Below are positions 4,243-63,819 of a stretch of 64,000 nucleotides of DNA, piece by piece (positions within the stretch are counted from its first letter, which is position 1; each line of letters starts with the position of its first letter). The stretch is taken from assembly GCA_964392445.1 (NCBI GenBank), contig CAYMPD010000001.1, positions 46,698 to 110,697 of the forward strand. The letters run 5' to 3'. The DNA is from an uncultured archaeon. GTDB taxonomy: Archaea > Aenigmatarchaeota > Aenigmatarchaeia > CG10238-14. Position numbers and translations under genes: made by a program. The notes below the pieces were generated by a model that ran no database searches, had not been told where the DNA came from, and worked only from the letters and a program-made list of their open reading frames with translations.

Positions 4243-5646
4243 TTATGTAAATGGATCATCCAAATCAGGGGACTCTTCGAAAAGAAATAATCCACTCTTT
4301 TTATCCATCCAAACATTTCGGTATTTATTCGTTCCTAATATTTGTCTGAACAGGGTAGTAGAGGCAACTCTAAACCCTCTTCTAAGATTAACAGGTGGTA
4401 AAATGAATCCATTACCAACTACCGAAAATGGCTCTAATGTAGATACATTATCACCTTCGCGCTCAACAAAAGAACTATAGCCAATAACCGCAGCTTCCAT
4501 CCTACCACCAAAAACACCGGAATTGTTCAAAATAACTGAAGGATATAATATATCATCATCTCTTAATCCAGTAATTTCAGTATCTTGACCTATAGAAACT
4601 CCATGGCCTATAATTGAATTGCTTATGTAGATATCTCCATCACCTCTCCCAGGATTAAAATCTGATCCTATCAGAACATGGCCACCAAATTGGATTTTAG
4701 CTCTCTCTACCTCTTCTAATGATTTTTCGTGAACTAAAACTCTCCCAGACGAAGTATCAAGTCTTTCATAATCATCAAAATCCAACCAATCATAATCACC
4801 AGTAATCGCTTTACCATTAGCACGTAAATAAGCCTTGATAGTTCCAAAGTCCTCCCAATCTTCAATCCTTCCTACCCCTTGTTGCCTTTGACCATAAGCA
4901 TACATTGAAACACCCTGATCAAGGAAATAAGGGAATATATCTCCTCCCATATCATCAAGTTTTACTCCATCCTCAATACCCTCTTCTAATATGTCTAAAA
5001 TAGTTGGAGAGAACATTACAATAGCTGTATTTATATAATCTGATGCGGGATCGGGTGATTTTTCTCTGAAATCCAATATACGGCCAGATTCATCGAATTT
5101 AACTGTTCCAAATTGATCTATCCCTGGCATTGAACCCCAATAAGTTACGCCTATGGTTACTCCTGGTGCATCTTCGTGTACTCTTTGATGGTATTTAGCC
5201 ATATCAATTGGATCAAAATTTGCAAAATTATCAGCATTTAATACCAGAATCAAATTATCCTGGATTTTTTCTCTATTGTTTCTTAAAAAATGGATAAAAG
5301 CGTCACCACTGCCTTCTGTTACACTTCTTCTCTCAAGAGATTTTTCTGGATCATAATAAGTTGAATATCTAATAGATAAATTATCTGCAATATTTCTACC
5401 GTCCTTCAAATCAGCAGGTACAAAAATATCATTAGCTAATCCATGTGTTGTAATATAACCTCTAAGTTCCTCCTGGTGATCCTGGAGAGATAGATATAAC
5501 ATTTCAACTACAGCCCTTAAGGGTGTTCTATTAGCTATATCTAACCAACCCTTTGATATTCCCATCTCAACTCCACCTATGGTCAGAGGATATAATCTAG
5601 TAGCTTCTCCACCTACAGGCACATAAAATACTAATTCTTTAAGCAT
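4243..5646 (-). CDS. Sugar-1-phosphate nucleotidyltransferase (GlgC/RmlA-like) with C-terminal left-handed beta-helix
   Basis: 467 aa; N-terminal GGEATRLYPLT (G-x-G-T-R-L-x-P-L-T pyrophosphorylase signature); Gly/Ile-rich hexapeptide-like C-terminal region. Confidence 0.7.
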   Translation of the reverse strand: MLKELVFYVPVGGEATRLYPLTIGGVEMGISKGWLDIANRTPLRAVVEMLYLSLQDHQEELRGYITTHGLANDIFVPADLKDGRNIADNLSIRYSTYYDPEKSLERRSVTEGSGDAFIHFLRNNREKIQDNLILVLNADNFANFDPIDMAKYHQRVHEDAPGVTIGVTYWGSMPGIDQFGTVKFDESGRILDFREKSPDPASDYINTAIVMFSPTILDILEEGIEDGVKLDDMGGDIFPYFLDQGVSMYAYGQRQQGVGRIEDWEDFGTIKAYLRANGKAITGDYDWLDFDDYERLDTSSGRVLVHEKSLEEVERAKIQFGGHVLIGSDFNPGRGDGDIYISNSIIGHGVSIGQDTEITGLRDDDILYPSVILNNSGVFGGRMEAAVIGYSSFVEREGDNVSTLEPFSVVGNGFILPPVNLRRGFRVASTTLFRQILGTNKYRNVWMDKKSGLFLFEESPDLDDPFT

Positions 5647-5743
5647 ATTAACTCCTAATTTTTCATTTTAATGGATGTATAGGTGGTTATTCTTTTATAG
5701 TGATATCCTCTTCTTTTTTATAAGAAATGAAAAAACAGAAAAG

Positions 5744-5848
5744 TGGGCCGACCCAGAATCGAACTGAGCTTTTCGCCTATCCTGGTCATACCTGTAAGGG
5801 TTCCGCGATCAAAAGACCTCGACGTCCTAACCGATAGACTATCGGCCC
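5744..5848 (-). tRNA. tRNA-like gene with about 30-nt insertion; anticodon arm not resolvable (atypically spliced tRNA or pseudogene)
   Basis: Minus-strand sequence has perfect 7-bp acceptor stem GGGCCGA/TCGGCCC with discriminator A, canonical D-arm (GTCT-ATCGGTTA-GGAC) and T-arm (CTCAG-TTCGATT-CTGGG). The 54 nt between D- and T-arm cannot be folded into a 5-7-5 anticodon arm with any single canonical or non-canonical intron I tried. Confidence 0.45.
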
Positions 5849-5931
5849 TCAGTTAATTAATTGGATAAATTAGATTTAAAAATATATTGATAACGAAAGA
5901 AATCAAAATTAATAAAAGAAAAAAACCTGAA

Positions 5932-6660
5932 TCAGGAAGGAAAAGTATTCCTAACATTCATCATCATATCAATGAATTGCTTTATCTCTTCTCTTGGTTT
6001 ACCTCTGTATGAACCATCGTACATCTTAATCGTTCCTCTTTCTCCATCAAAGGTTACTGTGTATTTGCTTCCATTAACCCAATCAATCTTGGGAATTACT
6101 GAGACTAATCTTAAGGAATTCGGGTTTGAAGAAATGTACTCAAGATATTTTTGATTCTTTTCTAATCTTTTTCCTCTCAAGATCTGATACCACATCCCAT
6201 GGATATACTTGAACATTGCTTTCTTGACCTCCTCACTGTTCTTGTTGACTATTGTTAGTAATTGTTGGGAAGTAAGGTCCACTTGTTCTAATCTCACTTT
6301 TAACAGTCCTTCGAAAAATTTCTTTATTTTTGCTGTTATGTGATCTTTTCCACGATATATCTCTAGTATTCCTGAAACCGTATTCAAATAACATAGGATA
6401 TCCCTACTAATCTTTTCCTCACCATTTTCTCTTAGATAATTCGCTAATTTCTCAGCTCTATCTGAAAATACTCTCTTCATCCCCGTTTCCAAGTCTTCCT
6501 CATAAGTCACTACTATCTCAATTTCCTTATCATTTTCTCTGGATCTTGTTGCTTCAAACTTACATTTTCCTAGATCTACCCCAGTCAAATTATAGAGTAT
6601 ATCTAATCTTTTAGGTATATGCGCCAATTTAAATACCGACACCGTTACCATTCTAATCAC
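5932..6660 (-). CDS. hypothetical protein
   Basis: 242-aa ORF with good coding periodicity; no motif recognised. Confidence 0.45.
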   Translation of the reverse strand: MIRMVTVSVFKLAHIPKRLDILYNLTGVDLGKCKFEATRSRENDKEIEIVVTYEEDLETGMKRVFSDRAEKLANYLRENGEEKISRDILCYLNTVSGILEIYRGKDHITAKIKKFFEGLLKVRLEQVDLTSQQLLTIVNKNSEEVKKAMFKYIHGMWYQILRGKRLEKNQKYLEYISSNPNSLRLVSVIPKIDWVNGSKYTVTFDGERGTIKMYDGSYRGKPREEIKQFIDMMMNVRNTFPS

Positions 6661-6752: not shown

Positions 6753-7223
6753 ATGAACAAGAAAAAAACGTCCAAATCAGAGGAATACGATACCAAAAAC
6801 ACCAGGAGAATACTCAAAACTTTGGCTGAGAATCCTAGAGGTCTTACAATAACTGATGTAGCCTCAAAACTGGATTTAAACAGGCATACTGTTACCAAAA
6901 TCCTTGATAGGTTGTTAATAGAGAAGAGAGTGGATTATGACGAAAAAGGGCCTGCTAAAATCTTTTATTCCACAGGTACTAGTAGGTTTGTTGGGAGAGT
7001 CGATCAAGGTAAGTTTGATAAATTATGGATAGATGTGTTTAAGCCTAAGTATGAGGGTGAACAAGAATTTATAAGAATCAACCAGACCAAACATGATCAC
7101 TTGATTAGAACTCCAAGTAAGTTCAGAAGTGTTGGTGCAGTGGCTGTTAAGAGGAAGAATGTGATTAATCTGATTAGGATATTGAAGGATGTTGCAAGGG
7201 ACGAGTTGAATTTGAAGGTCTGA
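6753..7223 (+). CDS. winged-helix transcriptional regulator (MarR/TrmB-like)
   Basis: 156 aa; N-terminal HTH ILKTLAENPRGLTITDVASKLDLNRHTVTKILDRL followed by wing. Confidence 0.5.
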   Translation: MNKKKTSKSEEYDTKNTRRILKTLAENPRGLTITDVASKLDLNRHTVTKILDRLLIEKRVDYDEKGPAKIFYSTGTSRFVGRVDQGKFDKLWIDVFKPKYEGEQEFIRINQTKHDHLIRTPSKFRSVGAVAVKRKNVINLIRILKDVARDELNLKV

Positions 7224-13571: not shown

Positions 13572-13643
13572 GCCCTTGTAGTTTAATGGATAGAATATCT
13601 CCCTGCGGAGGAGGCGATCCGAGTTCGAATCTCGGCAAGGGCA
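13572..13643 (+). tRNA. tRNA-Arg (GCG)
   Basis: 72-nt cloverleaf: acceptor GCCCTTG/CAAGGGC + A, D-arm GTTT-AATGGATA-GAAT, anticodon stem TCTCC/GGAGG loop CTGCGGA (GCG), V CGAT, T-arm CCGAG-TTCGAAT-CTCGG. Confidence 0.85.
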
Positions 13644-22597: not shown

Positions 22598-22610
22598 AAA
22601 AGTGAGAGTT
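22598..22610 (+). repeat. AAAGTGAGAGTTA motif copy 1
   Basis: Exact 13-mer, 80 nt upstream of gene 22691; starts a short GTG-initiated MRVK... reading frame. Confidence 0.6.
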
Positions 22611-22690
22611 AAATTTTGGAAAGTAGAAATAAGTTTTAGTCGGAAAACACGAGGAGAAGGGTTATAAGCACATAAAATCTTAATTTAGTT

Positions 22691-23116
22691 ATGAAAATTC
22701 CTGAAAGTGTTGGCTGGGATAGAATAAACGAAGGATTGAAAAAACTAGATGTAGTTGGGATAAACCATTTCAGTCTTGGGTTACCTAAGGAAAGTGAGGG
22801 AACAAATCCTGAAAAGGTAGAACTTTTCTTCGAGGAAATGGGAAAAATTATTGGAATAGAGAATCCTAAAGAGGTGAAATCGACTGAGTGGTTCATCTAC
22901 CCTGATGGTAAAACTCCAGGATATGAGCATCTACTTTGGCCTGGTAAAAAAGTTTTTTATCATATTGAAATCGATGTTAAGGATTCTAATGAAAGAATAA
23001 TGGAGGTTTTTCCTGAAGCATTTGAAGAAAGGCCCGGAATGTTTTGGTTAACAGTAGATAAGGGTTTCTTGGGAATACTGTGGGCGGTCATTATAACTAA
23101 CAAGAGAGAAAAGTGA
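22691..23116 (+). CDS. hypothetical protein
   Basis: 141-aa ORF; preceded 80 nt upstream by AAAGTGAGAGTTA motif. Confidence 0.4.
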   Translation: MKIPESVGWDRINEGLKKLDVVGINHFSLGLPKESEGTNPEKVELFFEEMGKIIGIENPKEVKSTEWFIYPDGKTPGYEHLLWPGKKVFYHIEIDVKDSNERIMEVFPEAFEERPGMFWLTVDKGFLGILWAVIITNKREK

Positions 23117-23120
23117 GGGT

Positions 23121-24945: not shown

Positions 24946-24976
24946 TATTTGAAAAATAGATTATTATTTTTTACCG

Positions 24977-24989
24977 AAAGTGAGAGTTA
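24977..24989 (+). repeat. AAAGTGAGAGTTA motif copy 4
   Basis: Exact 13-mer; GTG within it opens a 33-codon hydrophobic ORF (MRVKLTILDLIIASIGLILLGLGYIDQCNCVSI) upstream of the ATP-grasp cassette. Confidence 0.6.
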
Positions 24990-25103
24990 AACTAACAATT
25001 TTAGATTTAATTATTGCCTCTATAGGTCTTATTTTATTAGGACTAGGATATATAGACCAATGTAATTGTGTGAGTATTTGATCAGGTGATAGACTGAAGG
25101 AAC

Positions 25104-25125
25104 CCAGATAGATTCCTTTTCAGGT
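25104..25125 (+). repeat. 22-nt direct repeat, left copy (CCAGATAGATTCCTTTTCAGGT)
   Basis: 20/22 identity with 27792-27813; the two copies bracket the ATP-grasp/amidohydrolase three-gene cassette. Confidence 0.6.
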
Positions 25126-25136
25126 CCCTGAAAAGG
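25115..25136 (+). promoter_or_regulatory. perfect 10-bp-arm palindrome CCTTTTCAGG-TC-CCTGAAAAGG
   Basis: Read directly; overlaps left direct repeat, about 65 nt upstream of ATP-grasp gene start; operator- or hairpin-like. Confidence 0.45.
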
Positions 25137-25199
25137 GGATTTATATAGTTTCATCACCACCAAAATGCTTAATTTAGAGGTCATGTATATATTTCTTGT

Positions 25200-26081
25200 A
25201 TGAAAATTGTTATTTTAGGCTCCCCAGAAAGGAGAAAAAAAGACTTAGAACTCCTGAAAGACGCAAAAGGGGTTTTTGATAAAGCTTTATATGTTTCAAT
25301 AGATTCCGTTAAGTTGGAGGTATCAGACGAAATGAAAGTATCCTTCGAAAAGACTGATCTTTCAGATTTCGACGTAATTCTCCCTGTGCCCACATATGAA
25401 CACAAAGAAACCTATTATATGTGTCTGAAAATTCTTGAAAAAAGTTGTTATGTTCCATACAAGAGCGATGATTTCTTTTTACTCTGGAACAAACCACTTT
25501 TAATAAAGAAACTTCAAGAGAGTGATATTAACGTGAGGAAAACAGTTGTAGTCGCATCTAATTATATACCCGAAAATGCTGTAAAAGAATTGAAATTGCC
25601 TATCATTGTTAATTCATATAAGGGGAAAGTTTTGGTCACCGACAAAAATACCCTTAAGGATGTTATGGATTTATTTAAAAAAGGTATAATGAATAGACTT
25701 GAGAAGCCTATATCGGCTAATAAGAGTATCTGGTGCTTTATTGTCGGTGACGAAGTTATTGGTTGTTATGAAAAAGTAGGTGATGAGAGAAAAAGAATGA
25801 CTAAAGCCAGTTCGGATATTACTAAATTATCTAAAAGGATAAAATCCATTGTCAATACTGATTTCTGCATAATTAATTTCCTAGAAACTAAAGACAAAAT
25901 AATCGTAAAAAATATTAGTGTGACACCAGATTTCCCGTTGTTTGAAAAAATCACAGGTAAAAACCTAGGCTTGAGTTTACTAATTTATGTTAAAAGCCAG
26001 ATTGAAGAAGAAAAACTTCCTTTTATAACGAAATTCATAATAGACGTTATGGATTTATTGAAAAGGTTGGTGAAACAATGA
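25200..26081 (+). CDS. ATP-grasp (RimK-like) paralog, probably catalytically degenerate
   Basis: 293 aa; N-terminus and domain order parallel the downstream RimK-like gene (MKIVILG..LSDFDVILP) but lacks the Gly-rich ATP loop; 4-nt overlap with next gene. Confidence 0.5.
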   Translation: MKIVILGSPERRKKDLELLKDAKGVFDKALYVSIDSVKLEVSDEMKVSFEKTDLSDFDVILPVPTYEHKETYYMCLKILEKSCYVPYKSDDFFLLWNKPLLIKKLQESDINVRKTVVVASNYIPENAVKELKLPIIVNSYKGKVLVTDKNTLKDVMDLFKKGIMNRLEKPISANKSIWCFIVGDEVIGCYEKVGDERKRMTKASSDITKLSKRIKSIVNTDFCIINFLETKDKIIVKNISVTPDFPLFEKITGKNLGLSLLIYVKSQIEEEKLPFITKFIIDVMDLLKRLVKQ

Positions 26082-26944
26082 AAATAGCGATATTGGGTAA
26101 AGTAAAAAGGAGTTACGAAGAAATAAAGATCATAAAAGAAGCGAAGAAAGTTTTTAACTCTGTTTTATATTTACCTATACCAGAAGCGAGGATAGAGATA
26201 AATTCCGACTTCAGTGTTAAATTTAAGAACGAAGATTTGTCGGACTTTGACTGTATATTACCAAGGATTCCCCGAAGTTATAGGACATATGGATTCACGT
26301 TATTGTCAGCTCTTAAAGGCAAAACATTTGTGCCAATAGAGCCAATGTCCTTGTTCAACTGTCATAATAAATTCCTAACCCTCATGATACTGAATGAAGA
26401 GGGTTTACCTGTACCTAAAACATTACTATCCGAAAAGAGAAAAATCATCGAGGATTCCTTGGATGAAATAGGTTATCCAGTTGTAATGAAACTTCTCTAC
26501 GGTTCCATGGGGAAAGGTGTAATGTTTGCAGACGGCAAACAATCTGCTATAAGTTTCATGGACACACTTGAAAGATTCGACGAACCAATTTTCGTCGAGG
26601 AATTTGTTCCAAATAATGGAGAGGATATTAGAATTTACATGGTAGATCATGAACCCATTGCTTGTATGAAGAGAGTGGCAAAAGAAGGGGAAAAAAGGTC
26701 TAATATTGGGATTGGGGGAAAAGGGGAAAAGTACATATTGCCTGAAAAATACGAAGATCTGGTCCACAGTGCATCCAAGTCACTTGAAGCCAGGATTTGT
26801 GGCTTGGATTTGATGGAATCCAAGAAAGGACCCGTTTTTATTGAAGCTAATATCAACGCCCAATTCAAGGGACTAGAAGAAGCTACCAAAATCAACGTTG
26901 CAAAAATTATAATAGAATTTATGAAGAGCTGTGTGAAAGAGTGA
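26078..26944 (+). CDS. RimK/LysX-family ATP-grasp ligase (alpha-L-glutamate ligase-like)
   Basis: 288 aa; GYPVVMKLLYGSMGKGVMF (Lys + Gly loop), EEFVPNNGEDIRIYMVD, GLDLMESKKGPVFIEANINAQF (catalytic E-x-N). Confidence 0.8.
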   Translation: MKIAILGKVKRSYEEIKIIKEAKKVFNSVLYLPIPEARIEINSDFSVKFKNEDLSDFDCILPRIPRSYRTYGFTLLSALKGKTFVPIEPMSLFNCHNKFLTLMILNEEGLPVPKTLLSEKRKIIEDSLDEIGYPVVMKLLYGSMGKGVMFADGKQSAISFMDTLERFDEPIFVEEFVPNNGEDIRIYMVDHEPIACMKRVAKEGEKRSNIGIGGKGEKYILPEKYEDLVHSASKSLEARICGLDLMESKKGPVFIEANINAQFKGLEEATKINVAKIIIEFMKSCVKE

Positions 26945-26948
26945 AAGA

Positions 26949-27785
26949 ATGGATTTTCTTAGATTTAGTGACTTAAAATCAATGGATAGTTTTCTAGAGG
27001 AGATTAGTGTCAAAAGAGAAGACAAAATGGAGTATTACAAATTTAGCAAGTTCGAGGAGAACAGAATTCTTTTTACAGCCGAGCACAGCAAAATCGTGAA
27101 ATTTCAGACCTCTAAATTCCCAAGACCCAATTGTATCGAATTAGGTGATAGAAATACTGACAAAATCGCTAAACTGATGTCCTACAAACTTAAATCTGGG
27201 TATCTTATTTTCGGGTACCCGAGAACGGAAGTTGATGCATCAAGATCTTTCAGAACTTTGGGTGGAGATGAAAAAATAAAGGCTGCAGTTACAAGAAAAA
27301 AAGAATTATTAGGAAAAGTGGATGTAAAGATACACCAAAATGAGAAATATTTGTCAAACCTTCAGAAATACCATTCTATAGTTGAAAAATCGAACCCTAA
27401 GATAATAGCGTCCATCCATGGTATACAGAGGAGACACAAAAATGATGTAGTTTTTGGGTTAGGTGAGAATTCTGAGTATGTGGGTGGGGCGAAGGAAGAG
27501 AAAAGGTTAATGAATATACTCGAAAAAAATCTTGAAGAAAATGGTCAATCAGACTTGAAATTCAGAGTTTCAAAAAAATATTATACTGGTAAAAGGAATT
27601 TTGTTTTACATCGAAATATCCTCGAGTTCAATAGAAGTAATCCAGAAAAAAGGTACGGCATGCAGATAGAATTTAATAGGAGAACCAGAGTGGGAGATAA
27701 ATCCAAAGAGTTCATAAAAAAGAAATATCAAATTGTATGTCAAATAATAGCGGATTCAATTTTAGAGTGGGGAAAACCTAAATGA
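26949..27785 (+). CDS. putative creatininase/ArfB-family-like amidohydrolase (tentative)
   Basis: 278 aa; FTAEHS, GDRNTDKIAKL, IIASIHGIQRRHKN segments resemble creatininase-family metal ligands (EQHG / TD..IA / NGHxxN) from memory; cannot be confirmed without a profile search. Confidence 0.4.
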   Translation: MDFLRFSDLKSMDSFLEEISVKREDKMEYYKFSKFEENRILFTAEHSKIVKFQTSKFPRPNCIELGDRNTDKIAKLMSYKLKSGYLIFGYPRTEVDASRSFRTLGGDEKIKAAVTRKKELLGKVDVKIHQNEKYLSNLQKYHSIVEKSNPKIIASIHGIQRRHKNDVVFGLGENSEYVGGAKEEKRLMNILEKNLEENGQSDLKFRVSKKYYTGKRNFVLHRNILEFNRSNPEKRYGMQIEFNRRTRVGDKSKEFIKKKYQIVCQIIADSILEWGKPK

Positions 27786-27791
27786 GTCGAT

Positions 27792-27813
27792 CCAAATAGA
27801 TTCCTATTCAGGT
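27792..27813 (+). repeat. 22-nt direct repeat, right copy (CCAAATAGATTCCTATTCAGGT)
   Basis: 20/22 identity with 25104-25125; 7 nt downstream of cassette's last stop codon; further weak similarity extends about 40 nt (GGGATT-AT...). Confidence 0.6.
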
Positions 27814-27908
27814 AAGGGACCCAAAGAAGCCTAGATGCTCAGAAATGATGGGATTATTTCAATGGAGGGTGTGAAAAAGTATTATGATAAAAAACCATGA
27901 GTATCAAA

Positions 27909-27921
27909 AAAGTGAGAGTTA
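27909..27921 (+). repeat. AAAGTGAGAGTTA motif copy 5
   Basis: Exact 13-mer 50 nt upstream of ndk. Confidence 0.6.
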
Positions 27922-27970
27922 AATACAAAAAATTTAACTGATAAAACCAAATTAATTCAGAGGTGAGTTC

Positions 27971-28567
27971 ATGGGAGATGTATGGCAAAGGACATTATTT
28001 ATGGTTAAACCTGATGGTGTTAAAAGAGGGTTAGTGGGAGAGTGTTTTAGAAGAGCAGAGAACGCTGGATTAAGTGTTATAGCAATGAAAATGATCCATC
28101 CAACAAGAGAACAGGCGGATAGACATTATCCAAGTGAGGAAGATGATAAAGACTGGTTCCTAAAGGTAGCCGAGAAAGGAAGAAAAGGATACGAGAAAAG
28201 AGGTTTAGAATTTCCTTACGATGATATGGAATATGCCAGAAACATCAAAAAATGGTTAGTTGATTACTTATCTTCTGGTCCTGTTGTTGCTTCGGTTTTA
28301 GAAGGTCCAAATGCGATTAGTATGGTTAGGAAGATTTGTGGAGCAACGGAGCCTGCTCAAGCGGAAATAGGTACAATAAGGGGAGATTTCTCGGTTGATA
28401 GTTACAAACTGGCAAATAAACTAGAAAGACCACTCAAGAACATAGTTCATGCAGCATCCAGTCCTAAAGACGCGGAGAAAGAGATTAAAGTTTGGTTTAG
28501 TGAAGATGAAATAATGGAATATAAGAGAGCGGAAGAAGGTGTGATGTTCGATCCAATCGAAAAGTGA
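27971..28567 (+). CDS. ndk: Nucleoside diphosphate kinase (long form with insertion)
   Basis: 198 aa; TLFMVKPDGV, GTIRGDF, NIVHAAS (catalytic His) motifs; about 45-aa insertion relative to 150-aa NDKs. Confidence 0.85.
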   Translation: MGDVWQRTLFMVKPDGVKRGLVGECFRRAENAGLSVIAMKMIHPTREQADRHYPSEEDDKDWFLKVAEKGRKGYEKRGLEFPYDDMEYARNIKKWLVDYLSSGPVVASVLEGPNAISMVRKICGATEPAQAEIGTIRGDFSVDSYKLANKLERPLKNIVHAASSPKDAEKEIKVWFSEDEIMEYKRAEEGVMFDPIEK

Positions 28568-28631
28568 GACTTCACAGGGTAAAATCCTCGTCACTAGTTA
28601 CAAAAATCCAGACTTAGACGGAACTGCATGT

Positions 28632-29498
28632 ATGGTTGGTTATTCTGAATTGCTTAGAAAGAAAGGTGAGGATGCTAGTCCAGGTTATTTTGGAAATCTT
28701 CAAAGGGAGACTAAGTATCTTCTTAAGAAATTCCGTATCTCTAGACCTAAGAAGGGTGAGGATCTAATCGAAAAGTGTGATAAGGTTGTAGTAGTTGACA
28801 ATGTTAACCCCATTGGTTTATCGGAAAAAATAGACCTTGAAAAGGTCGTGGAAGTTATCGATCACCATTATTCTGAAAAGAGACTTTTGAAAGAATATCC
28901 TAATGCTAAAGGGGAGATAGAAGAGGTTGGAGCGGCAGCAACATTAATAGTTGAAAAGTATATGGAATCTGAAATACCGATCGACAGAGATCCTGCAATC
29001 TTGCTTTACAGTGGCATTATTTCCAATACCTTGAATTTCCAATCAAATACAACAACTGAAAGGGATAAGAAAGCTGCGAAATGGTTGAGAAAGTTAATTG
29101 ATATCCCTAAAACTTTTGCAAGAGATATGTTCGCCTCGAAATCGGATCTAAGTGATAAGAAAATTTATGATGTGTTAACTGGTGATTTGAAAGAACTGAA
29201 AGATGATTCTCTTTATATTGCACAACTAGAGATAATTGATTTAGAAAAAACAGTGAGAGAAGGGAAAGAGGAAATAACCAAAGCGCTCAAGACGATTAAA
29301 AAAGAAAAAAGTGGAAAATATGTCTTCCTAACGGGAATGGATCTCGAGAAAGGATTCAATCTCTTTTTGGTAGTGGATGATAAAAGTAAGGAACTTCTTG
29401 AGAAAGCTCTAAATGTTAAATTTGTTAATAATATAGCCAGGCGAGAAGGATTAATCATGAGAAAGGAAATAATACCAATAATTGAAAAATACTTGTGA
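28632..29498 (+). CDS. DHH-family phosphoesterase (start unresolved; conserved N-terminal motif lies upstream of first ATG)
   Basis: VVVVDNV..EVIDHHYS (DHH motif). The same frame is open from 28545 and encodes KILVTSYKNPDLDGTAC (DHH motif I) with no ATG/GTG/TTG before 28632. Confidence 0.7.
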   Translation: MVGYSELLRKKGEDASPGYFGNLQRETKYLLKKFRISRPKKGEDLIEKCDKVVVVDNVNPIGLSEKIDLEKVVEVIDHHYSEKRLLKEYPNAKGEIEEVGAAATLIVEKYMESEIPIDRDPAILLYSGIISNTLNFQSNTTTERDKKAAKWLRKLIDIPKTFARDMFASKSDLSDKKIYDVLTGDLKELKDDSLYIAQLEIIDLEKTVREGKEEITKALKTIKKEKSGKYVFLTGMDLEKGFNLFLVVDDKSKELLEKALNVKFVNNIARREGLIMRKEIIPIIEKYL

Positions 29499-29511
29499 AA
29501 AGTGAGAGTTA
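29499..29511 (+). repeat. AAAGTGAGAGTTA motif copy 6
   Basis: Exact 13-mer whose last A is the A of the NUDIX ATG; preceded by TGA stop of DHH gene. Confidence 0.6.
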
Positions 29512-29987
29512 TGAAACCAGGTAAAGACTTCATTGGCTTAGGAGTAGGAGCAATAATACAAAACGAAAAGGACCAAGTCCTACTTCTTAAAAGACCAGAT
29601 ACAATAACCCCTGATAGAACAACATCTGGAATGTGGTCAGTTCCTGGGGGTGAAGTTAAGTTTATGGAAAAAGTTGAAGATGCACTCAAACGAGAAGTGA
29701 GAGAAGAGATAGGAGTGGAAGTTGAAATAATTAAACCTATAGAATATCATGATCAGATACTAGATGAATCCCAAGTACACTGGCATTGTCAATCATTTCT
29801 TTGCAAAATTAAAGAGGGTAAACCTGAAATACATGAACCAAGTAAATGTGAGGATTTGAAGTGGTTTGATACTGATATTCTCCCCGAGAAGTGTGGTATA
29901 GCCCATATTGTTGTTCCTCTGTACAAGCTTGGCTGGATTAGTAAGAGTGAGTATGAAAGGAGATTAAGAAACACCCCCGAGAGTTGA
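29511..29987 (+). CDS. NUDIX hydrolase
   Basis: Nudix box GGEVKFMEKVEDALKREVREEIGVEVE; ATG at 29511 is immediately preceded by AAAGTGAGAGTT (track used in-motif GTG 29502). Confidence 0.8.
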   Translation: MKPGKDFIGLGVGAIIQNEKDQVLLLKRPDTITPDRTTSGMWSVPGGEVKFMEKVEDALKREVREEIGVEVEIIKPIEYHDQILDESQVHWHCQSFLCKIKEGKPEIHEPSKCEDLKWFDTDILPEKCGIAHIVVPLYKLGWISKSEYERRLRNTPES

Positions 29988-30526
29988 TTAGTATGGATAT
30001 AGAAATTTTCAAGAAAAATAAAAAGTCTCTCCTAGTCATGGGAATTGGTATTATAATAGGGATGATCGGGCTTTTTCTGTTCCCAACTTTTCTAATCTTT
30101 ACTATTTTTCTTGTAGGTACTGGAATCTTAAACTTCGTACAGAGTAGGATGGAACTTCCATTTGACCTGACACCCTCCTTAGCTATCTTGATTCTCTTCT
30201 CGATAAAATTAGGATTTCTTGAGGGGATGATATTTCTGATATTGGGTTCTATAATACCCGGGATACTGGGAGGGGGATTTAATCACATGACTTTATTTTT
30301 CTTCCTTTTAGCTATGGGTATAAGTTATCTGGGATCATCATCTTTAATTGGGGACTTGAGAATCTATGGTATTGTCCTTATTGTGATTCAAGGCGTCTTT
30401 AGTTATCTAATCATAAAGCTCTTTTCGGTTGATCCTACGGATATTTTATCTGTTTTTCTAGGGTTCTTTGTAAACATTAGTTATTTTTTAGTTTTAAGTG
30501 AGTTAATAGCGAGCGTATTGGTTTGA
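29984..30526 (+). CDS. polytopic membrane protein
   Basis: 180 aa, 5-6 predicted TM helices; 4-nt overlap with NUDIX gene. Confidence 0.5.
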   Translation: MISMDIEIFKKNKKSLLVMGIGIIIGMIGLFLFPTFLIFTIFLVGTGILNFVQSRMELPFDLTPSLAILILFSIKLGFLEGMIFLILGSIIPGILGGGFNHMTLFFFLLAMGISYLGSSSLIGDLRIYGIVLIVIQGVFSYLIIKLFSVDPTDILSVFLGFFVNISYFLVLSELIASVLV

Positions 30527-30563
30527 ATGATACTTATTTCTTTATTTTCCTAAAAAGTGAGAC

Positions 30564-30749
30564 ATGAGTTATTGGTATTGTTTGGATTGCAGAAAAGTCG
30601 TGGATACTTATATGGATATTTTCAAAGCTTTCTCGCTTTGCTGTAAAGAGTGTGGGAGTACTAGGTTGTTGAAATTGAATAAGATGGATGAGAAAGAGTT
30701 TGATAAATTTGTTGAAGAATTCAAAAGGAAGACTGGGGAGGTTGAGTGA
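30564..30749 (+). CDS. Zn-ribbon protein with acidic C-terminal tail ending in Glu (LysW-like architecture)
   Basis: 61 aa; CLDC...CKEC ribbon then MDEKEFDKFVEEFKRKTGEVE; ATG directly preceded by AAAGTGAGAC. Confidence 0.45.
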   Translation: MSYWYCLDCRKVVDTYMDIFKAFSLCCKECGSTRLLKLNKMDEKEFDKFVEEFKRKTGEVE

Positions 30750-30750
30750 A

Positions 30751-31155
30751 GTGAAGGTTTATGTTGCGTCTAGATTTAATAATCAGCAAAAAGTCAAAGA
30801 AATTTATAGGGAACTGATTGAAAATGGGTTTGAAATAACTGTTGATTGGACCAAACATAAAAAAGTGAAGCCTTATGAAAAGAATCCTAAAATGTCTGAG
30901 AAATATTCAAAGGAAGATATCGAGGGGGTAAAAGATTCTGATATTTTAATTTTGTTGACTACTGAAAACCCTGGTAAAGGCATGTTTGTAGAAATGGGGG
31001 CTGCTATAATAGTAAATATACTTACAGGAAAACCAAAGATTTACATAATTGGAGATTATAATAAACAATCCCTATTTTACTTTCATCCGAACGTTAAGCG
31101 CCTAAACACGATAGAAGATGTTATTGAAGACTTGAAGAAAAGTGAGGTTTCATGA
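30751..31155 (+). CDS. nucleoside 2-deoxyribosyltransferase-like Rossmann protein (tentative)
   Basis: GTG start at 30751 preceded by GGGGAGGTTGA (SD-like); MKVYVASRFNN...ENGFEITVDW resembles NDT-like family N-terminus; track ORF (30688) starts inside upstream gene. Confidence 0.45.
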   Translation: MKVYVASRFNNQQKVKEIYRELIENGFEITVDWTKHKKVKPYEKNPKMSEKYSKEDIEGVKDSDILILLTTENPGKGMFVEMGAAIIVNILTGKPKIYIIGDYNKQSLFYFHPNVKRLNTIEDVIEDLKKSEVS

Positions 31156-31517
31156 CCAAAGAAATGACCTTAAAAGAACTCCAAAAGGTTCAGAAAGAGT
31201 TCGATGAAAAATACTTTAGTAAATACTGGATTGATAAGGAAGATATAGATCAGAAGATTAACTTTCTCAAAGACATGGCCATAGCCTTAACAGGAGAATT
31301 AGGTGAATTCGCAAACATCATCAAAAAAGTGAGTAGGGACAGAAAGAATCTTGGTAAAGAACCTAATAAGGAAAATATCCAGAAACTCAAGGAGGAATTG
31401 ACGGATTGTTTTATTTACCTTATAATCCTATCCAACATACTCGAAATGGACATAGAAAAACAGTATCTAAAGAAGACAAATCTAAATCACAAAAGATTTC
31501 AGAAGTACTTAAAATAG
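31152..31517 (+). CDS. MazG-like nucleotide pyrophosphohydrolase
   Basis: 121 aa; all-alpha EExGE motif LTGELGEFANIIKK and second EELTDCFIYLIIL helix typical of MazG/dimeric dUTPase-like NTP-PPases; start overlaps upstream stop (ATGA). Confidence 0.65.
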   Translation: MTKEMTLKELQKVQKEFDEKYFSKYWIDKEDIDQKINFLKDMAIALTGELGEFANIIKKVSRDRKNLGKEPNKENIQKLKEELTDCFIYLIILSNILEMDIEKQYLKKTNLNHKRFQKYLK

Positions 31518-51215: not shown

Positions 51216-53405
51216 TTAACTTTCTACCCCTGGAATTTTTTCACTCAACCCCCTTCTTTTTCTTACTTTTAAAACGGTTTGGTCTTGCAAACTCTTGGGT
51301 AGTTTCTCATATATAACATCAATTAAACTATAAAAACCTTTGCCTCCAGTCGCAGATTTCAATTCTGAGTTAAATCCGAACATTTCTGAAACCGGTAGCT
51401 TTGCTTGTATCATAGTCATTCCTCTTTCCTCATCCATTCCCAAAACCTGTCCTCTTCTGTTTTGAACCTCTTTTATCGCACCGCCCATATTTTCTGTAGG
51501 TACATCTATCCTGATTATTTGTTTAGGTTCAAGAATACTTGGTTCTCCTAGAAGCATTCCAATCTTAACCCCATGTCTAATTGCGGGTAAAACTTGTCCA
51601 GGGCCACGATGAACAGGATCTTCATGTAAACTAGCGTCAACTAAAGTAGCTTTTACCCCATAACATGGTTCTCTTGCTAAAGGCCCTTCATCCATTATAG
51701 ATTTGAATCCATCCTTCACCATTTCCATTGCTTCGTTCAGGTATTGTACACCTTTACATGAATTGAGAAGCATGTTCCTCTCGTAAATTAACTCAAGATT
51801 CTTGACATCATCAGCACTCATTCCTAACTCTTTTAAATCATCTATTAATTCTTGATTTTTCTTTTTCATATCATAGGTTGAGGGTATAGTATCTTCCTTC
51901 ATTGCCTCATAGTATTGTCTTTCAAGTGGCTCGATAATAAAGTAGAATCTGTTGTGTTTGTTCGGCGACTTTCCTTCTATCTCAGGTGATTTTTTAACTA
52001 GTGTTTCTCTGTAAACAACAATCGGCGGAGAAGCCCTGAATTCCAAGCCCATTTCTTTTAATTTTCTTTCCACTTTTGCATCAATATGTAATTCTCCTAA
52101 CCCAGAAACAAGATACTCCCCAGTTTCCTGATTAATTTTAACTCTGATAGTCGTATCCTCTCGCCCAAGTTTTTTCAAGAAGTTGATTAGTTTTGTTAGG
52201 TCTCTTGGGTTTTTCGGCTCCAAAGCTTTGGTAACTACAGGCTCAAATATATGTTTGATTTGTTCAAAAGGTTGAATTAGATAATCTGGTTCACAAATAG
52301 TTTCGCCAGAAAATGCATCAGGTATACCAACCAAACCAACAATATTCCCAGCCACGACTTCATCTACTTGTATCCTGTGTGGACCTTTGTAAACACTTAC
52401 TTGTTGTAATCTACCCGTCTTTCTTTTGCCGATCATCTTCACATCAGTTCCTTTGACTACTTTTCCAGAGAATATTCTCGCAGTTGCAATAAAACCAGCA
52501 TGTGGATCTGGTGTAACCTTGGTAACTACACCTGCCAAATGTCCATCAACATCAACCTTTTTCATGGATTGACCAATTTCCGAATCCATATCCCCAGACC
52601 ATATCTTCGGTATCCTGTACTCTTGTGCTTTAATCGGTGAAGGAAGATGTTTAATAATCATGTTAAGAACTACCTGGTGTAAAGGTGATTTTTCGGCAAG
52701 ATCGCTCTGTTTATCTTGTTCCGTCTTTTCAATTATCTCAGTGAAAGATATGCCCGTTTTTTCCATGTAAGGAATCGAAGTTCCCCATTTTTCCAGGGCT
52801 GAGCCAAAAGCAACTGAGCCATCGGCAACATTAACTAACCACTTGTCTTTGTATTCCTTTTCAGCATATTTTTGTATTAGAACATTAACATCAGTAATTA
52901 TTCGTGTGAATTTTTCTTGCATCTGCTCTGGTGTGAGTTTTAGTTCTTTGATTAGTCTATCAACCTTGTTAATGAATAGAATAGGTTTAACTCTTTCTTT
53001 TAAAGCCTGACGTAGGACTGTCTCGGTCTGAGGCATAGCACCTTCTACAGCGTCAACTAGGAGTATAGCACCATCTACAGCTCTTAGAGCGCGCGTGACA
53101 TCCCCACCGAAGTCCACATGACCGGGAGTGTCTATTAGATTGATTAGATAATCGTCCCCGTCCCAATTGTGAACCATACTAGCATTTGCTGACCAGATTG
53201 TTATTCCTCTTTCCTGTTCTTGATCATCTGTGTCCAAAAATCTTCTTTGGCCAGCTACATTAAACGAGATCATTCCCGCTTGTGCTATCAAACTATCAGA
53301 AAAGGTTGTTTTCCCATGGTCAATATGGGCGATTGTTCCTATATTTCTGATTTTGCCCGGTTTGTACATCAGTTTCTTTACTTTTTCTATCATTTCTTCT
53401 GCCAT
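51216..53405 (-). CDS. fusA: Elongation factor 2
   Basis: 729 aa; AHIDHGKTT, DTPGH, NKVD; diphthamide-region HRGPGQ present. Confidence 0.95.
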   Translation of the reverse strand: MAEEMIEKVKKLMYKPGKIRNIGTIAHIDHGKTTFSDSLIAQAGMISFNVAGQRRFLDTDDQEQERGITIWSANASMVHNWDGDDYLINLIDTPGHVDFGGDVTRALRAVDGAILLVDAVEGAMPQTETVLRQALKERVKPILFINKVDRLIKELKLTPEQMQEKFTRIITDVNVLIQKYAEKEYKDKWLVNVADGSVAFGSALEKWGTSIPYMEKTGISFTEIIEKTEQDKQSDLAEKSPLHQVVLNMIIKHLPSPIKAQEYRIPKIWSGDMDSEIGQSMKKVDVDGHLAGVVTKVTPDPHAGFIATARIFSGKVVKGTDVKMIGKRKTGRLQQVSVYKGPHRIQVDEVVAGNIVGLVGIPDAFSGETICEPDYLIQPFEQIKHIFEPVVTKALEPKNPRDLTKLINFLKKLGREDTTIRVKINQETGEYLVSGLGELHIDAKVERKLKEMGLEFRASPPIVVYRETLVKKSPEIEGKSPNKHNRFYFIIEPLERQYYEAMKEDTIPSTYDMKKKNQELIDDLKELGMSADDVKNLELIYERNMLLNSCKGVQYLNEAMEMVKDGFKSIMDEGPLAREPCYGVKATLVDASLHEDPVHRGPGQVLPAIRHGVKIGMLLGEPSILEPKQIIRIDVPTENMGGAIKEVQNRRGQVLGMDEERGMTMIQAKLPVSEMFGFNSELKSATGGKGFYSLIDVIYEKLPKSLQDQTVLKVRKRRGLSEKIPGVES

Positions 53406-53407
53406 AA

Positions 53408-54010
53408 TTATCTCGCCCCACTGGCCTCTCTCTCAATCCTTTCTTTTTCCTTAATCGCAAAAGACTTCGAGGAATCATTTTTATAAGCATGAATTATCTC
53501 ATCTACCAATGCATCAACCATTGATATTTTATTACCAAACGACTTCCTGTAAGACGATTGAACAATTATCGACAAAGCCGAATCAACTCTTCTTTGAGGA
53601 GATGTAATAACAGCTTTCCTAACTATCGTCCCTCCAATCTGATAAGAACTTATCTCCTCCCTCAAAGATGCATTTTCCAAAGCCCCAACTAGAATCTCTA
53701 TTGGGTTCTTTTTAGTCTTCTTTTCTATTTTTTCAAAACCTTCTTTTACAATATTAAGAATAGTTTGACTTTTTCCAGTAGTTCTACCTGAAGAAATAAG
53801 ATGTTTTTTCCCTCTATGACCAGGCACCATCAACTTGTTAACAAGTCTTTCTACAATATTCACTCTAGACTTACCAAATTTCTTTTGACTAAACTTCCCA
53901 CCAGTATTGGGAACAATAACTGGATCAAGATTAATATAAGGTTTTAATCCAGGATCATTCACCTTAATATCCTCAAAGGACCATCTGTTAAAAAGTTTAA
54001 TTTCTACCAT
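53408..54010 (-). CDS. rps7: 30S ribosomal protein S7
   Basis: 200 aa; uS7 pattern, conserved position between S12 and EF-2. Confidence 0.9.
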   Translation of the reverse strand: MVEIKLFNRWSFEDIKVNDPGLKPYINLDPVIVPNTGGKFSQKKFGKSRVNIVERLVNKLMVPGHRGKKHLISSGRTTGKSQTILNIVKEGFEKIEKKTKKNPIEILVGALENASLREEISSYQIGGTIVRKAVITSPQRRVDSALSIIVQSSYRKSFGNKISMVDALVDEIIHAYKNDSSKSFAIKEKERIEREASGAR

Positions 54011-54015
54011 AACTA

Positions 54016-54441
54016 TTACCTCACTGGTTTCTGCTTTTTACCTGCAAGTATTTCTGATAAGGCAACTCCATTCACTTTGACAACTTTGTATTTCAAACCC
54101 CACTGACTTCCAACGGGACCACCTTGAGAACCACCTACACCCTCTATCAAAACCTCGTCATGTTCAGTTATTTTATCAATCGCATGGTCACCTGGAACAA
54201 AGGCTGTAACCCTAATATTGTTCTTAACTAATTGTACTCTGACGGTTTTAATCAAACCAGAGTGAGGCTGTTTTTGCTCGCAAGATCTTTTATCAATAAC
54301 TATTCCTCTAGCTTGGGGAGCACCTTCTAACGGCTCTTTCTTTTTGAGATTGAGTTGTCTACGCATGTATTTATTATCCTTCCATTTGAATTTCTTTCTA
54401 TCTTTCTTAAGTTTTCTCGCGGCAAATTCTCCTCTAGCCAT
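54016..54441 (-). CDS. rps12: 30S ribosomal protein S12
   Basis: 141 aa; PKKPNSA-like and VRVQLVKNN...AFVPGDGH uS12 motifs. Confidence 0.9.
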
Positions 54442-54857
54442 TATTTCACCCTCAAATCTGATACATTATGGACTCTCTTTAATATTTCCCTATATATTTT
54501 TATTTTTTCCCCCCCACGCCCAATCACATAACCTTTATCGGATTTATCAACTTTTATCTCTATCTCAACCGAATCAGTATTATTGATCACAGTTACTTCC
54601 TTTGCTTGAGGGATTAAATTTTTAACGAATTCAACAAGATTAGGCGAGTATTCGAAGACTTTAACATTCTTTTCAATAGATTTTTCAACGTTTTTGATAG
54701 AACTTCCGCCCCTACCTATAGCCAACCCAATCTTCCCTTCTTCTACTATAAAATAAACGTCATCTTCATCAACAAAACAGTCTTTTACATGAACTTTTGT
54801 TATATTTTCAAATAAGTTCAGTAGTCTTATAGTCTCCATATTAAGTACAATTGTCAT
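54441..54857 (-). CDS. nusA: NusA-like transcription termination factor (two KH domains)
   Basis: 138 aa; two GxxG KH motifs ([21 protein letters not shown]); canonical position L30e-NusA-S12. Confidence 0.8.
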
Positions 54858-55126
54858 TTTTTACTCCCTTTTATTGCTAGCACGCTTACTGAAAATGGTT
54901 TACCGCAAACCAAACCCAATTCCAAGTTATCTTTGGGGTATTCTTTTACGATTATTTTTGAAATTTTTGAATTGTGAAGTATATTTTCCAATTTATCTCT
55001 TGGTAAATTATTTGAATGAACTACAAGTTTTGGTTTTCCAGTTTTAATTTCCTTTATTACACTTTTATAACCGAATATTATTCTTTTCTCCTTAACTGCG
55101 TCTTTTATAGTTTTATTCAAATCCAT
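54854..55126 (-). CDS. rpl30e: 50S ribosomal protein L30e
   Basis: 90 aa; L30e/L7Ae-fold size and conserved position after rpoA''. Confidence 0.8.
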   Translation of the reverse strand: MDLNKTIKDAVKEKRIIFGYKSVIKEIKTGKPKLVVHSNNLPRDKLENILHNSKISKIIVKEYPKDNLELGLVCGKPFSVSVLAIKGSKK

Positions 55127-60142: not shown

Positions 60143-60146
60143 TATC

Positions 60147-63490: not shown

Positions 63491-63544
63491 CTCATCACCA
63501 AAATAGAAGCGCCCTGGACGGGATTTGAACCCGTGTCCCGGGAG

Positions 63545-63562
63545 TTCTCCCACTTAAAGTGT
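63545..63562 (-). other. tRNA-Asp intron 2 (about 18 nt, canonical 37/38)
   Basis: ACACTTTAAGTGGGAGAA follows anticodon-loop CTGTCA and precedes C38-TCCCG. Confidence 0.6.
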
Positions 63563-63705: not shown

Positions 63706-63819
63706 AGTTGGCAACGTCCTGGATTTCCCGCCAATGGCAGTACACCCCAGATCACTAGAGGTCTTAATTACCGTGTTCGGATGAGAACGGATGTTTCCCC
63801 TCTGTTTTGGTCGCCAACT
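63706..63819 (-). rRNA. rrf: 5S ribosomal RNA
   Basis: Minus-strand RNA of about 114 nt with 10-bp terminal helix I (GUUGGCGAC/GUUGCCAAC with a G-U that is an A-C mismatch on the other strand), GUUCUCAUCCGAACACGGUAAUUAAG (loop C/helix III CCGAAC...GUUAAG consensus) and GUACUGCC; TTTAAAT TATA box about 25 nt upstream. Confidence 0.75.

Follow-up and report, generated by a model that had tools for sequence, protein, structure and literature searches.

An archaeal operon of a RimK-family ligase, its dead paralog and an FGase-fold hydrolase as a candidate module for adding and removing glutamate

Introduction

In bacteria, RimK/RimB reversibly glutamylate ribosomal protein S6, and in eukaryotes TTLL/CCP do the same to tubulin; we know of nothing comparable described in archaea. 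The question raised by the locus examined here is whether a three-gene operon at positions 25200-27785 of the window (the whole stretch of archaeal DNA that was analysed, 64,000 nucleotides in length) encodes such a system. The operon consists, in order, of a dead ligase paralog, a RimK-family ligase, and an FGase-fold hydrolase. No combination of RimK or another ATP-grasp protein with a formylglutamate amidohydrolase was found in the literature searched, a scope that did not extend to the amidoligase survey of Iyer et al. (2009).

The RimK-family ligase and its dead paralog

The second gene (26078..26944, + strand) encodes a protein of 288 aa, which a preliminary description of this DNA had called an active-looking RimK/LysX-type ATP-grasp enzyme. 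This was borne out by profile searches, in which the protein matched PF08443 at 4.4e-39 (134.5 bits, cutoff 21), Rimk_N at 1.2e-8, and TIGR00768 at 175.8 bits (cutoff 143.4), the last of which places it in the RimK family of alpha-L-glutamate ligases. The best solved relatives were the RimK structures 7qyr, 5zct, and 4iwx, which aligned end to end at approximately 1e-32, and by comparison with these the catalytic set is complete (the Lys of VVMKL, GSMGKGV, DIR, KRSNIGIGG, and D..E.N). Equivalog models were matched below their cutoffs, with 120.8 bits for RimK (NF007764, cutoff 331), 141 bits for MptN (cutoff 350), which was the second-best NCBIfam model, 125.6 bits for LysX (TIGR02144, cutoff 275.6), and 58.3 bits for CofF (cutoff 300). 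Because the ligase falls below every one of these cutoffs, the amino acid added and the acceptor are given here as predictions; judged from its homology, the protein adds an amino acid, most likely L-glutamate, and it is annotated as an active RimK-family ATP-grasp enzyme and predicted alpha-L-glutamate ligase.

The first gene of the operon (25200..26081, + strand) encodes a RimK-like ATP-grasp protein of 293 aa that shares 24% identity with the ligase over the full length and is distinguished by a weak profile match and by motif losses. It matched PF08443 at only 1.6e-7 and TIGR00768 at 49.5 bits, under the cutoff of 143.4. The absence of the Gly-rich ATP loop, which had been remarked on previously, is evident in the protein, which has likewise lost the RSN..GGG segment together with the D/E/N Mg ligands, so that the paralog is classified as a pseudo-enzyme. 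Identical catalytic losses were found across its orthologs (11-12 compared), in a few of which the Lys survives, and the mean column identity among these orthologs is 44% despite the losses. At least five matches were obtained when a profile of the pseudo-ligase was searched against proteins. The dead RimK paralog is an unannotated protein family.

The FGase-fold hydrolase

The third gene (26949..27785, + strand) encodes a protein of 278 aa that is annotated, from a fold search and conserved residues, as a divergent FGase-fold metallo-amidohydrolase and predicted deglutamylase. Searches of Pfam and NCBIfam, a phmmer search of the PDB, and a 3-sequence profile search all returned no matches, and the window protein did not match PF05013 even at E <= 10. 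Genome and metagenome scans gave no matches with a 3-sequence seed, and an 8-sequence alignment served as seed for a further scan. The family has 35 representatives in 1.84 billion proteins. Of the 28 family members compared with PF05013, 4 matched at E <= 1, and the most divergent, P0035, was alone in passing the threshold of the model (46.2 versus 28.9 bits). The AF2 model was generated with a 28-sequence alignment as input (pLDDT was 38 with a 3-sequence input). The fold search identified the three-dimensional fold as that of FGase, followed by PghP and the M14 carboxypeptidases as the next fold relatives.

Residues A44, H46, R92, D96, H157, G172, and E241 are invariant in the family (H46, R92, D96, H157, and E241 in the alignment of 28 sequences). 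The conserved set of His, Asp or Glu, His, and an additional Glu corresponds to H46, D/E67, H157, and E241, and Arg residues are conserved as well. Metal binding and specificity are putative assignments drawn from these residues and the fold. The family motifs are AEHS, GDRNTD, and SIHG; the AEHS, D-NTD, and IHG segments pointed out in the preliminary description are therefore real, but their attribution to the creatininase/ArfB/MftE group is rejected, because the Pfam search that had been proposed gave no match to Creatininase (PF02633) and the fold search gave FGase. Membership in the M14 metallocarboxypeptidases was also rejected, as the HxxE motif is absent (the sequence reads H46-S-K-I). 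The hydrolase is a new, very rare, and deep branch of the FGase fold, and its family is unannotated.

Gene order and distribution

The stop codon of the pseudo-ligase and the start codon of the ligase share 4 nt (ATGA), and start-stop overlaps between these two genes were seen again at other loci. The gap between ligase and hydrolase is 4 nt; the coordinates given earlier for the three genes are correct, and the 5 nt reported for this gap is not. The order dead ligase, ligase, hydrolase is kept in 13 independent archaeal loci, a recurrence that agrees with the earlier proposal that the three genes form one functional cassette and answers the neighborhood comparison suggested with it. The triad is almost confined to tiny DPANN (Aenigmatarchaeota-type) archaea, and its flanking genes vary from lineage to lineage. 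At one locus (L002) the hydrolase gene sits between two ATP-grasp genes, and at another (L008) it is paired with a circularly permuted ATP-grasp gene, which indicates that the pairing of ATP-grasp and hydrolase survives rearrangement. Two members of the hydrolase family have no adjoining ATP-grasp gene. Multiplied hydrolase paralogs lie beside the triad at some loci, a pattern suggestive of more than one eraser or specificity and not of a single supply step.

Nucleotide-metabolism genes were found near the triad in the window (NDK and NUDIX), at L001 (NUDIX and dTMP kinase), and at L003, L014, and L024 (HIT), although this proximity is inconsistent across loci. No small or acidic-tail protein was conserved beside the triad in the neighborhoods of the triad loci; a 61-aa ORF near the L024 triad encodes a hydrophobic membrane peptide and no Zn ribbon. 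A defence system was rejected for want of PADLOC matches, and a viral origin because neither the repeat described below nor the hydrolase had viral matches.

Proposed function

Positions 25200-27785 are interpreted, with a probability of about one half, as a single operon encoding a self-contained module that adds and removes glutamate. By homology, the RimK-family ligase uses ATP to activate the carboxylate of an acceptor, to which it then couples an amino acid through the alpha-amino group. The amide bond of N-acyl-glutamate that is cut by FGase is of the type made by RimK, and the hydrolase would thus undo the addition; its predicted activity is removal of the glutamate placed by the ligase. 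The dead paralog, whose gene is translationally coupled to that of the ligase, retains the N-terminal pre-ATP-grasp domain but none of the catalytic machinery, and it would probably be a non-catalytic subunit of a hetero-oligomer serving in substrate recruitment or in regulation of the ligase. The acceptor would be encoded elsewhere in the genome, most likely as the C-terminus of a housekeeping protein, and would be distinct both from the Zn-ribbon protein nearby and from the product of the upstream mini-ORF. A more specific proposal, put forward tentatively and at less than even odds, is that this is the first dedicated archaeal writer/eraser of protein C-terminal (poly)glutamylation, in which the ligase and an obligate dead paralog would form a hetero-oligomer, the paralog would pick the target, and the FGase-fold deglutamylase would reverse the modification; in genome-reduced DPANN archaea, a housekeeping protein such as a ribosomal or translation factor would be tuned in this way.

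Against the module as proposed, the one protein that RimK has been proven to modify is, to our knowledge, bS6, and it is missing from Archaea. Small molecules are also glutamylated by RimK-family enzymes, namely MptN, CofF, and mammalian RIMKLA/B, and it is possible, if on balance unlikely, that no protein is modified here: the product of the ligase would be a glutamyl dipeptide, oligo-alpha-glutamate in free form, or a cofactor or metabolite that has been glutamylated, and the FGase-like enzyme would degrade or recycle this product. The rank of MptN, a tetrahydromethanopterin:Glu ligase, as second-best NCBIfam model (141 bits) is in line with this, as are the small N-acyl-glutamate substrates of the FGases, to which the hydrolase is structurally closest, the lack of a substrate protein encoded nearby, and the frequent location of the triad near nucleotide-metabolism genes. 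The ligase is nevertheless well under the MptN and CofF cutoffs (141 versus 350 and 58 versus 300), the methanopterin and F420 pathways are, as is well established, generally missing in DPANN archaea, and the nucleotide genes are near the triad at some loci and not at others; in addition, a conserved and coupled dead paralog would be more usual in machinery acting on macromolecules.

It is improbable that the two activities are instead sequential, with the FGase-like enzyme acting on scavenged N-acyl-glutamates or peptides to free the glutamate that the ligase uses next. Free glutamate is the product of FGase (HutG), DPANN archaea are known to rely on scavenging, and the genes are tightly linked, but cells are normally rich in glutamate, the pseudo-ligase would be unexplained, and the multiplied hydrolase paralogs do not fit a single supply step.

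Retention of the adding-and-removing module in archaea with very small genomes, which seldom keep dispensable genes, suggests that its role, whether regulatory or metabolic, is an important one. The dead RimK paralog family and the FGase-fold branch gain a concrete biochemical hypothesis, and finding the substrate could expose a level of post-translational control that is new for DPANN archaea, together with a new class of deglutamylase.

The Zn-ribbon protein and the mini-ORF

Two small ORFs reported in the preliminary description, a 33-codon mini-ORF beginning MRVK (24980-25081, with a GTG start) and a 61-aa Zn-ribbon ORF ending in TGEVE (30564-30749), were both confirmed in the sequence. 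They had been proposed as substrates in a LysW-like carrier system, in which the Zn-ribbon protein or the MRVK peptide would be glutamylated. The Zn-ribbon protein does carry a CxxC...CCxxC knuckle and a C-terminal Glu, and 4 of 5 homologs share an identical TGEVE tail; homolog P0042 has ...GELK at its end. However, no LysW match was found in Pfam or NCBIfam, and the gene lies within a separate nucleotide-metabolism operon (NDK-DHH-NUDIX-TM-ZnR-NDT-MazG), to which it is probably translationally coupled. The same Zn-ribbon operon is present in a close Aenigmarchaeota relative (L011/L012) in which the syntenic slot lacks the triad, the mini-ORF is likewise kept in triad-less L011, and no Zn-ribbon homolog occurs within approximately 8 kb of the triad at any other locus tested. 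The Zn-ribbon protein is therefore not LysW-like, and the carrier proposal is considered very doubtful for both ORFs.

Flanking repeats and hairpin

A 22-nt direct repeat brackets the operon, with the left copy, CCAGATAGATTCCTTTTCAGGT, at 25104..25125 (+ strand) and the right copy, CCAAATAGATTCCTATTCAGGT, at 27792..27813 (+ strand), unstructured and 6 nt past the hydrolase stop codon. As noted previously, the copies agree at 20 of 22 nt and the left one overlaps a palindrome, specifically its left arm. The pair exceeds chance (2 matches versus 0 expected, and none in 100 shuffles of the window). The palindrome is a perfect 10-bp one (25115-25124 / 25127-25136) within a hairpin at 25113..25138 (+ strand), in the stretch separating the mini-ORF from the start of the operon, that was identified from the sequence and from RNA folding; a longer hairpin around it folded with a dG of -21.6 kcal/mol (z -3.1). 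The hairpin region gave a terminator-like match and is directly followed by a TATA-like TTTATATA at 25140-25147, and the hairpin is possibly an operator or a terminator.

That the repeats mark an att-type or target-site-duplicated cassette, so that the grouping of the genes reflects mobility and not shared function, would be consistent with the statistics of the repeat, with the differing surroundings of the triad in each lineage, and with a slot between two AAAGTGAGAGTTAA motifs that holds the triad here and a different 106-aa gene in L011. This explanation is given very little weight, since the other 11 triad loci have no flanking repeats above shuffle level (the repeat is unique to this genome), there is no adjoining gene for an integrase or transposase, neither repeat nor hydrolase has viral matches, target-site duplication by insertion into the 106-aa gene of L011 is rejected for lack of any remnant of a disrupted gene, and the conserved internal order and coupling would be left unexplained.

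Comparison with known systems

Among archaeal systems, the LysX/ArgX-LysW-LysK clusters also combine a RimK-family ATP-grasp ligase with a metallohydrolase. The neighbors here are NDK, DHH, NUDIX, NDT, and MazG, and no equivalents of LysW, LysZ, LysY, or LysJ were found with Pfam and NCBIfam, in agreement with the earlier statement that this is not a Lys/Arg biosynthesis cluster with an amino-group carrier protein; moreover, LysK is an M20 enzyme, whereas the hydrolase of the operon has the FGase fold. FGase/HutG (PF05013; 2q7s, 2odf) shares with the hydrolase the same order of motifs (His, Asp/Glu, Arg..Asp..Arg, His, Glu), and the most divergent family member passes the PF05013 threshold. 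The window protein and most of its relatives, in contrast, have no PF05013 match, the FGase structures are 13-15% identical to it, and in the genome it is paired with an ATP-grasp ligase instead of histidine-utilisation genes. No relationship to PghP/YndL (DUF867) was detected at the sequence level, and those phage or Bacillus enzymes act on a gamma-linked polymer and have no ligase partner.

In Pseudomonas, Glu tails are put on RpsF by RimK and taken off by the co-transcribed RimB (PMC7343187, PMC11957791). The RimABK system of Pseudomonas and E. coli thus resembles the operon, as interpreted here, in having an ATP-grasp ligase, a dedicated glutamate-removing hydrolase, and a third partner (PMC7343187, PMC11957791). 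The third partner of RimABK is a regulatory EAL phosphodiesterase, whereas here it is a dead ligase paralog; RimB belongs to the retropepsin-like aspartic proteases, whereas the predicted eraser is an FGase-fold metallo-amidohydrolase; and the RimK target bS6 does not occur in archaea, while the ligase falls under the RimK equivalog cutoff. The resemblance to tubulin glutamylation by TTLL/CCP is one of analogy, as the ligase is RimK-type and not TTL-type, and the hydrolase lacks the M14 HxxE. By analogy with these two systems, the best reading of the module is that it would be to archaea what RimK/RimB is to bacteria and TTLL/CCP to eukaryotes.

Gene organization and conservation of the module

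Three ORFs were located on the + strand, encoding a pseudo-ligase (25200-26081, 293 aa), a RimK-family ligase (26078-26944, 288 aa), and a predicted FGase-fold hydrolase (26949-27785, 278 aa). The first two overlap at ATGA and the last two are separated by 4 nt; the preliminary description had placed all three correctly and had given this gap as 5 nt. A possible coupling uORF of 6 codons, read by eye (ATG TAT ATA TTT CTT GTA TGA; 25183-25203), could also be present; it is preceded by a Shine-Dalgarno-like AGAGGT and ends in a stop codon that shares bases with the start codon of the pseudo-ligase at 25200 (GTATGA).

The ligase scored above the curated RimK-family threshold (TIGR00768, 175.8 vs 143.4 bits), matched PF08443 (4.4e-39) and Rimk_N (1.2e-8), and could be aligned over its full length to RimK structures (7qyr, 5zct, and 4iwx) at approximately 1e-32. 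It fell under every equivalog cutoff (MptN, 141 vs 350; LysX, 125.6 vs 275.6; RimK, 120.8 vs 331; CofF, 58 vs 300). All catalytic motifs (VVMKL, GSMGKGV, DIR, KRSNIGIGG, and D..E.N) were complete in a structure-sequence alignment, which, together with the TIGR00768 and PF08443 matches, agrees with the initial reading of an active-looking RimK-type ATP-grasp enzyme.

The 293-aa protein is a paralog of the ligase (24% identity) that retains the N-terminal domain. Absence of the Gly-rich ATP loop, noticed at the outset, was borne out by alignment, and further catalytic losses were found: a 13-residue deletion has removed the RSN..GGG segment, and the DIR arginine and 3/3 Mg ligands are gone as well. 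The losses of the loop, the segment, and the Mg ligands are shared by twelve orthologs from independent loci, with a mean column identity of 44%; on sequence grounds, these identical losses and this conservation identify the paralog as an old pseudo-enzyme under selection, rather than a decaying duplicate.

Genomic-neighbourhood comparison with homologous loci from other archaeal contigs (designated L) showed that pseudo-ligase, ligase, and hydrolase genes follow one another in this order at 13 independent loci, comprising the window, L001, L003 (with L004 and L005), L010, L013, L014, L017, L018, L019, L020, L021, L023, and L024 (with L025 and L026). The ligase start usually overlaps the pseudo-ligase stop. 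All records with the module that name an organism belong to Candidatus Aenigmatarchaeota, and the remainder are labelled uncultured archaeon. The ATP-grasp/hydrolase pairing is retained in two variants, L002 (ligase, hydrolase, second ATP-grasp) and L008/L009 (hydrolase paired with a circularly permuted ATP-grasp); two hydrolase-family members are solitary, with no ATP-grasp neighbour. The ATP-grasp gene beside the FGase-like gene at L008 8783-9658 and L009 4691-5566 appears circularly permuted in that residues 7-30 of its product resemble the C-terminal Mg-binding strand of the YheCD, TTL, and ATP-grasp_3 profiles and residues 142-267 resemble the start of the RimK profile, the protein stopping just short of the expected D/E/N motif. 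Clustering of ORFs within approximately 8 kb of the triads revealed neither a further gene common to the majority of loci nor a small protein that is conserved; the module is self-contained, and its substrate is presumably encoded elsewhere.

The predicted hydrolase family

The 278-aa protein had no match in Pfam, NCBIfam, or PDB sequences, and a word-index search of 5.8 billion proteins returned just two relatives. When 1.84 billion cluster representatives were searched exhaustively with a profile, 35 family members were recovered, 27 of them scoring <1e-30. In a 28-sequence alignment, A44, H46, R92, D96, H157, G172, and E241 were invariant, G66, T70, R99, H129, and G158 were nearly invariant, and D/E67 was conserved. 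The AlphaFold2 model obtained with this alignment reached a pLDDT of 95.9 and a pTM of 0.93; with a three-sequence alignment as input the pLDDT was only 38. The most divergent member, P0035, which was recovered by a 3-sequence profile at 3.6e-10, exceeded the Pfam FGase threshold (46.2 vs 28.9 bits), and two other members matched weakly. The protein thus represents a deeply diverging lineage within the FGase fold and is not creatininase-like, as had previously been proposed; no creatininase-family chain was found among its top matches.

Several lineages also carry, a few genes away from the triad, members of a second, remote family of FGase-like paralogs of approximately 320-340 aa, which matches the main family at an hhalign E of 3e-4 to 1e-3 (L004 8344-9342 and 9375-10340; L014 4250-5158 on the - strand and 5201-6211; L017 4016-4990 on the - strand; L024 11747-12766). 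Its motifs are APH, GD.G[ST], and PR..G.D..R, a HIT-family gene often follows it, and no copy was found in the window.

Proposed function

The module is a conserved, translationally coupled operon in which the RimK-type ligase is intact, its paralog is dead, and the third product combines the FGase fold with a conserved metal-hydrolase-like residue set. RimK-family enzymes join the alpha-amino group of glutamate to an acceptor carboxylate through an amide bond, FGase cleaves the amide of N-acyl-L-glutamate, and glutamyl bonds are also cut by PghP and CCP enzymes. We infer, with a probability of about one half, a system of reversible alpha-glutamate addition and removal, in which the ligase would add alpha-linked glutamate to a carboxylate acceptor, the hydrolase would remove it, and the pseudo-ligase would act as a non-catalytic subunit in substrate recruitment or regulation. 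A protein C-terminus is favoured as the acceptor because the pseudo-subunit is obligate and because DPANN archaea generally lack the cofactor pathways; both points count against a small-molecule acceptor, which is considered less likely.

Neighbouring operon and mini-ORF

The 61-aa Zn-ribbon protein (30564-30749) had been likened to LysW-type carriers. No LysW match was obtained in Pfam or NCBIfam, just weak generic zinc-ribbon matches; five homologs are known (74-91% identical), one of which ends ...GELK. Its gene lies in a nucleotide-housekeeping operon (27971-31517) encoding NDK, a DHH/DHHA2 phosphoesterase (family II pyrophosphatase-like), a NUDIX protein, a 180-aa membrane protein, the Zn ribbon, a nucleoside 2-deoxyribosyltransferase-like (NDT-like) protein, and a MazG/dUTPase-like protein, and its stop codon abuts the next gene. 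The operon is kept in identical order in two relatives, L012 and L011 (Candidatus Aenigmarchaeota archaeon, GCA_014728985.1), the latter having a Zn-ribbon homolog with 87% amino-acid identity and, in the slot that the triad occupies in the window (25068-27908), an unrelated 106-aa minus-strand gene. The Zn-ribbon protein probably functions with this operon.

The region of the 33-codon MRVK mini-ORF (24980-25081) is 90-94% identical at the nucleotide level to L011 (24977-25067 vs 6770-6858; 93.6% over 78 nt), and the triad is absent there. This exceeds the 67-80% identity of the flanking protein genes and suggests, from the comparison of sequences, that either the nucleic acid (DNA or RNA) or a small hydrophobic peptide is under constraint; Rfam gave no match in the region. 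That the Zn-ribbon protein or the mini-peptide is the substrate is very improbable, since L011 keeps both the operon and the mini-ORF without the triad and the surroundings of the other triads tested contain no homolog of the Zn-ribbon protein.

Repeats, recurrent motif, and genomic setting

Direct repeats of 22 nt (20/22 identical) were found at 25104 and 27792 as described, with the left copy overlapping a perfect 10-bp palindrome (25115-25124 / 25127-25136); a comparable pair occurred in 0/100 shuffles. The palindrome extends to a hairpin (-21.6 kcal/mol, z -3.1) followed by a TATA-like TTTATATA at 25140-25147, and the right copy is unstructured. The flanking repeat is confined to this genome: at 11 other triad loci the best flank-to-flank 22-mer match was 14-16/22, equal to shuffles. 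No disrupted-gene remnant, recombinase, or viral match was found for the triad region. The hairpin (25113-25138) and the AAAGTGAGAGTTAA motif may be operator, leader, or recombination elements.

The 14-15 nt motif AAAGTGAGAGTT[AC]A has 9 copies in the window (<=2 mismatches) vs 0.8 expected, those within 22.6-29.5 kb being all on the + strand (22599, 23492, 24309, 24977, 27909, and 29499; also 23289 and 28561; partial at ~30553), and copies in L011 lie at 4412, 5953, 6770, 7344, 7997, and 8935. Every synteny breakpoint with L011 carries the motif, and the slots after it hold different genes; the PPIase block and the 72-aa + 185-aa block have exchanged places. Another variable slot (22623-23119), between the copy at 22599 and a DUF192 gene, holds a 141-aa gene (22691-23116); in L011 the equivalent spacer is 70 nt long and lacks this gene. 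Because it stands immediately upstream of start codons inside operons, the motif may be partly Shine-Dalgarno-like; a TATA-like box lies ~25 nt upstream of the copies at 22599, 24977, and 27909. The motif may act as a leader or ribosome-binding site, or as a site of recombination.

Synteny of the region with L011 extends across 4.3 kb at 75% nucleotide identity, and the G+C content of the window is approximately 35%. Given a 5S rRNA (63706-63818, 69 bits), tRNA-Met (2866-2940), tRNA-Arg (13572-13643), and a long series of large ORFs on the - strand (51216-63553), the window looks like core chromosome, not an island.

Comparison with known systems

Full-text literature searches returned no paper joining RimK/ATP-grasp enzymes with formylglutamate amidohydrolase (the 2009 amidoligase survey of Iyer et al. 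lay outside the search) and, on RimK in DPANN, nothing bearing on the triad. The functionally closest system is Pseudomonas RimABK, in which RimK adds polyglutamate tails to RpsF and RimB, encoded on the same transcript, shortens them (PMC7343187, PMC11957791). The triad differs from it in three respects: its predicted eraser belongs to another fold, a dead ligase takes the place of the accessory protein, and archaea have no S6 substrate. By analogy, the writer/eraser logic of TTLL/CCP would parallel that of the triad.
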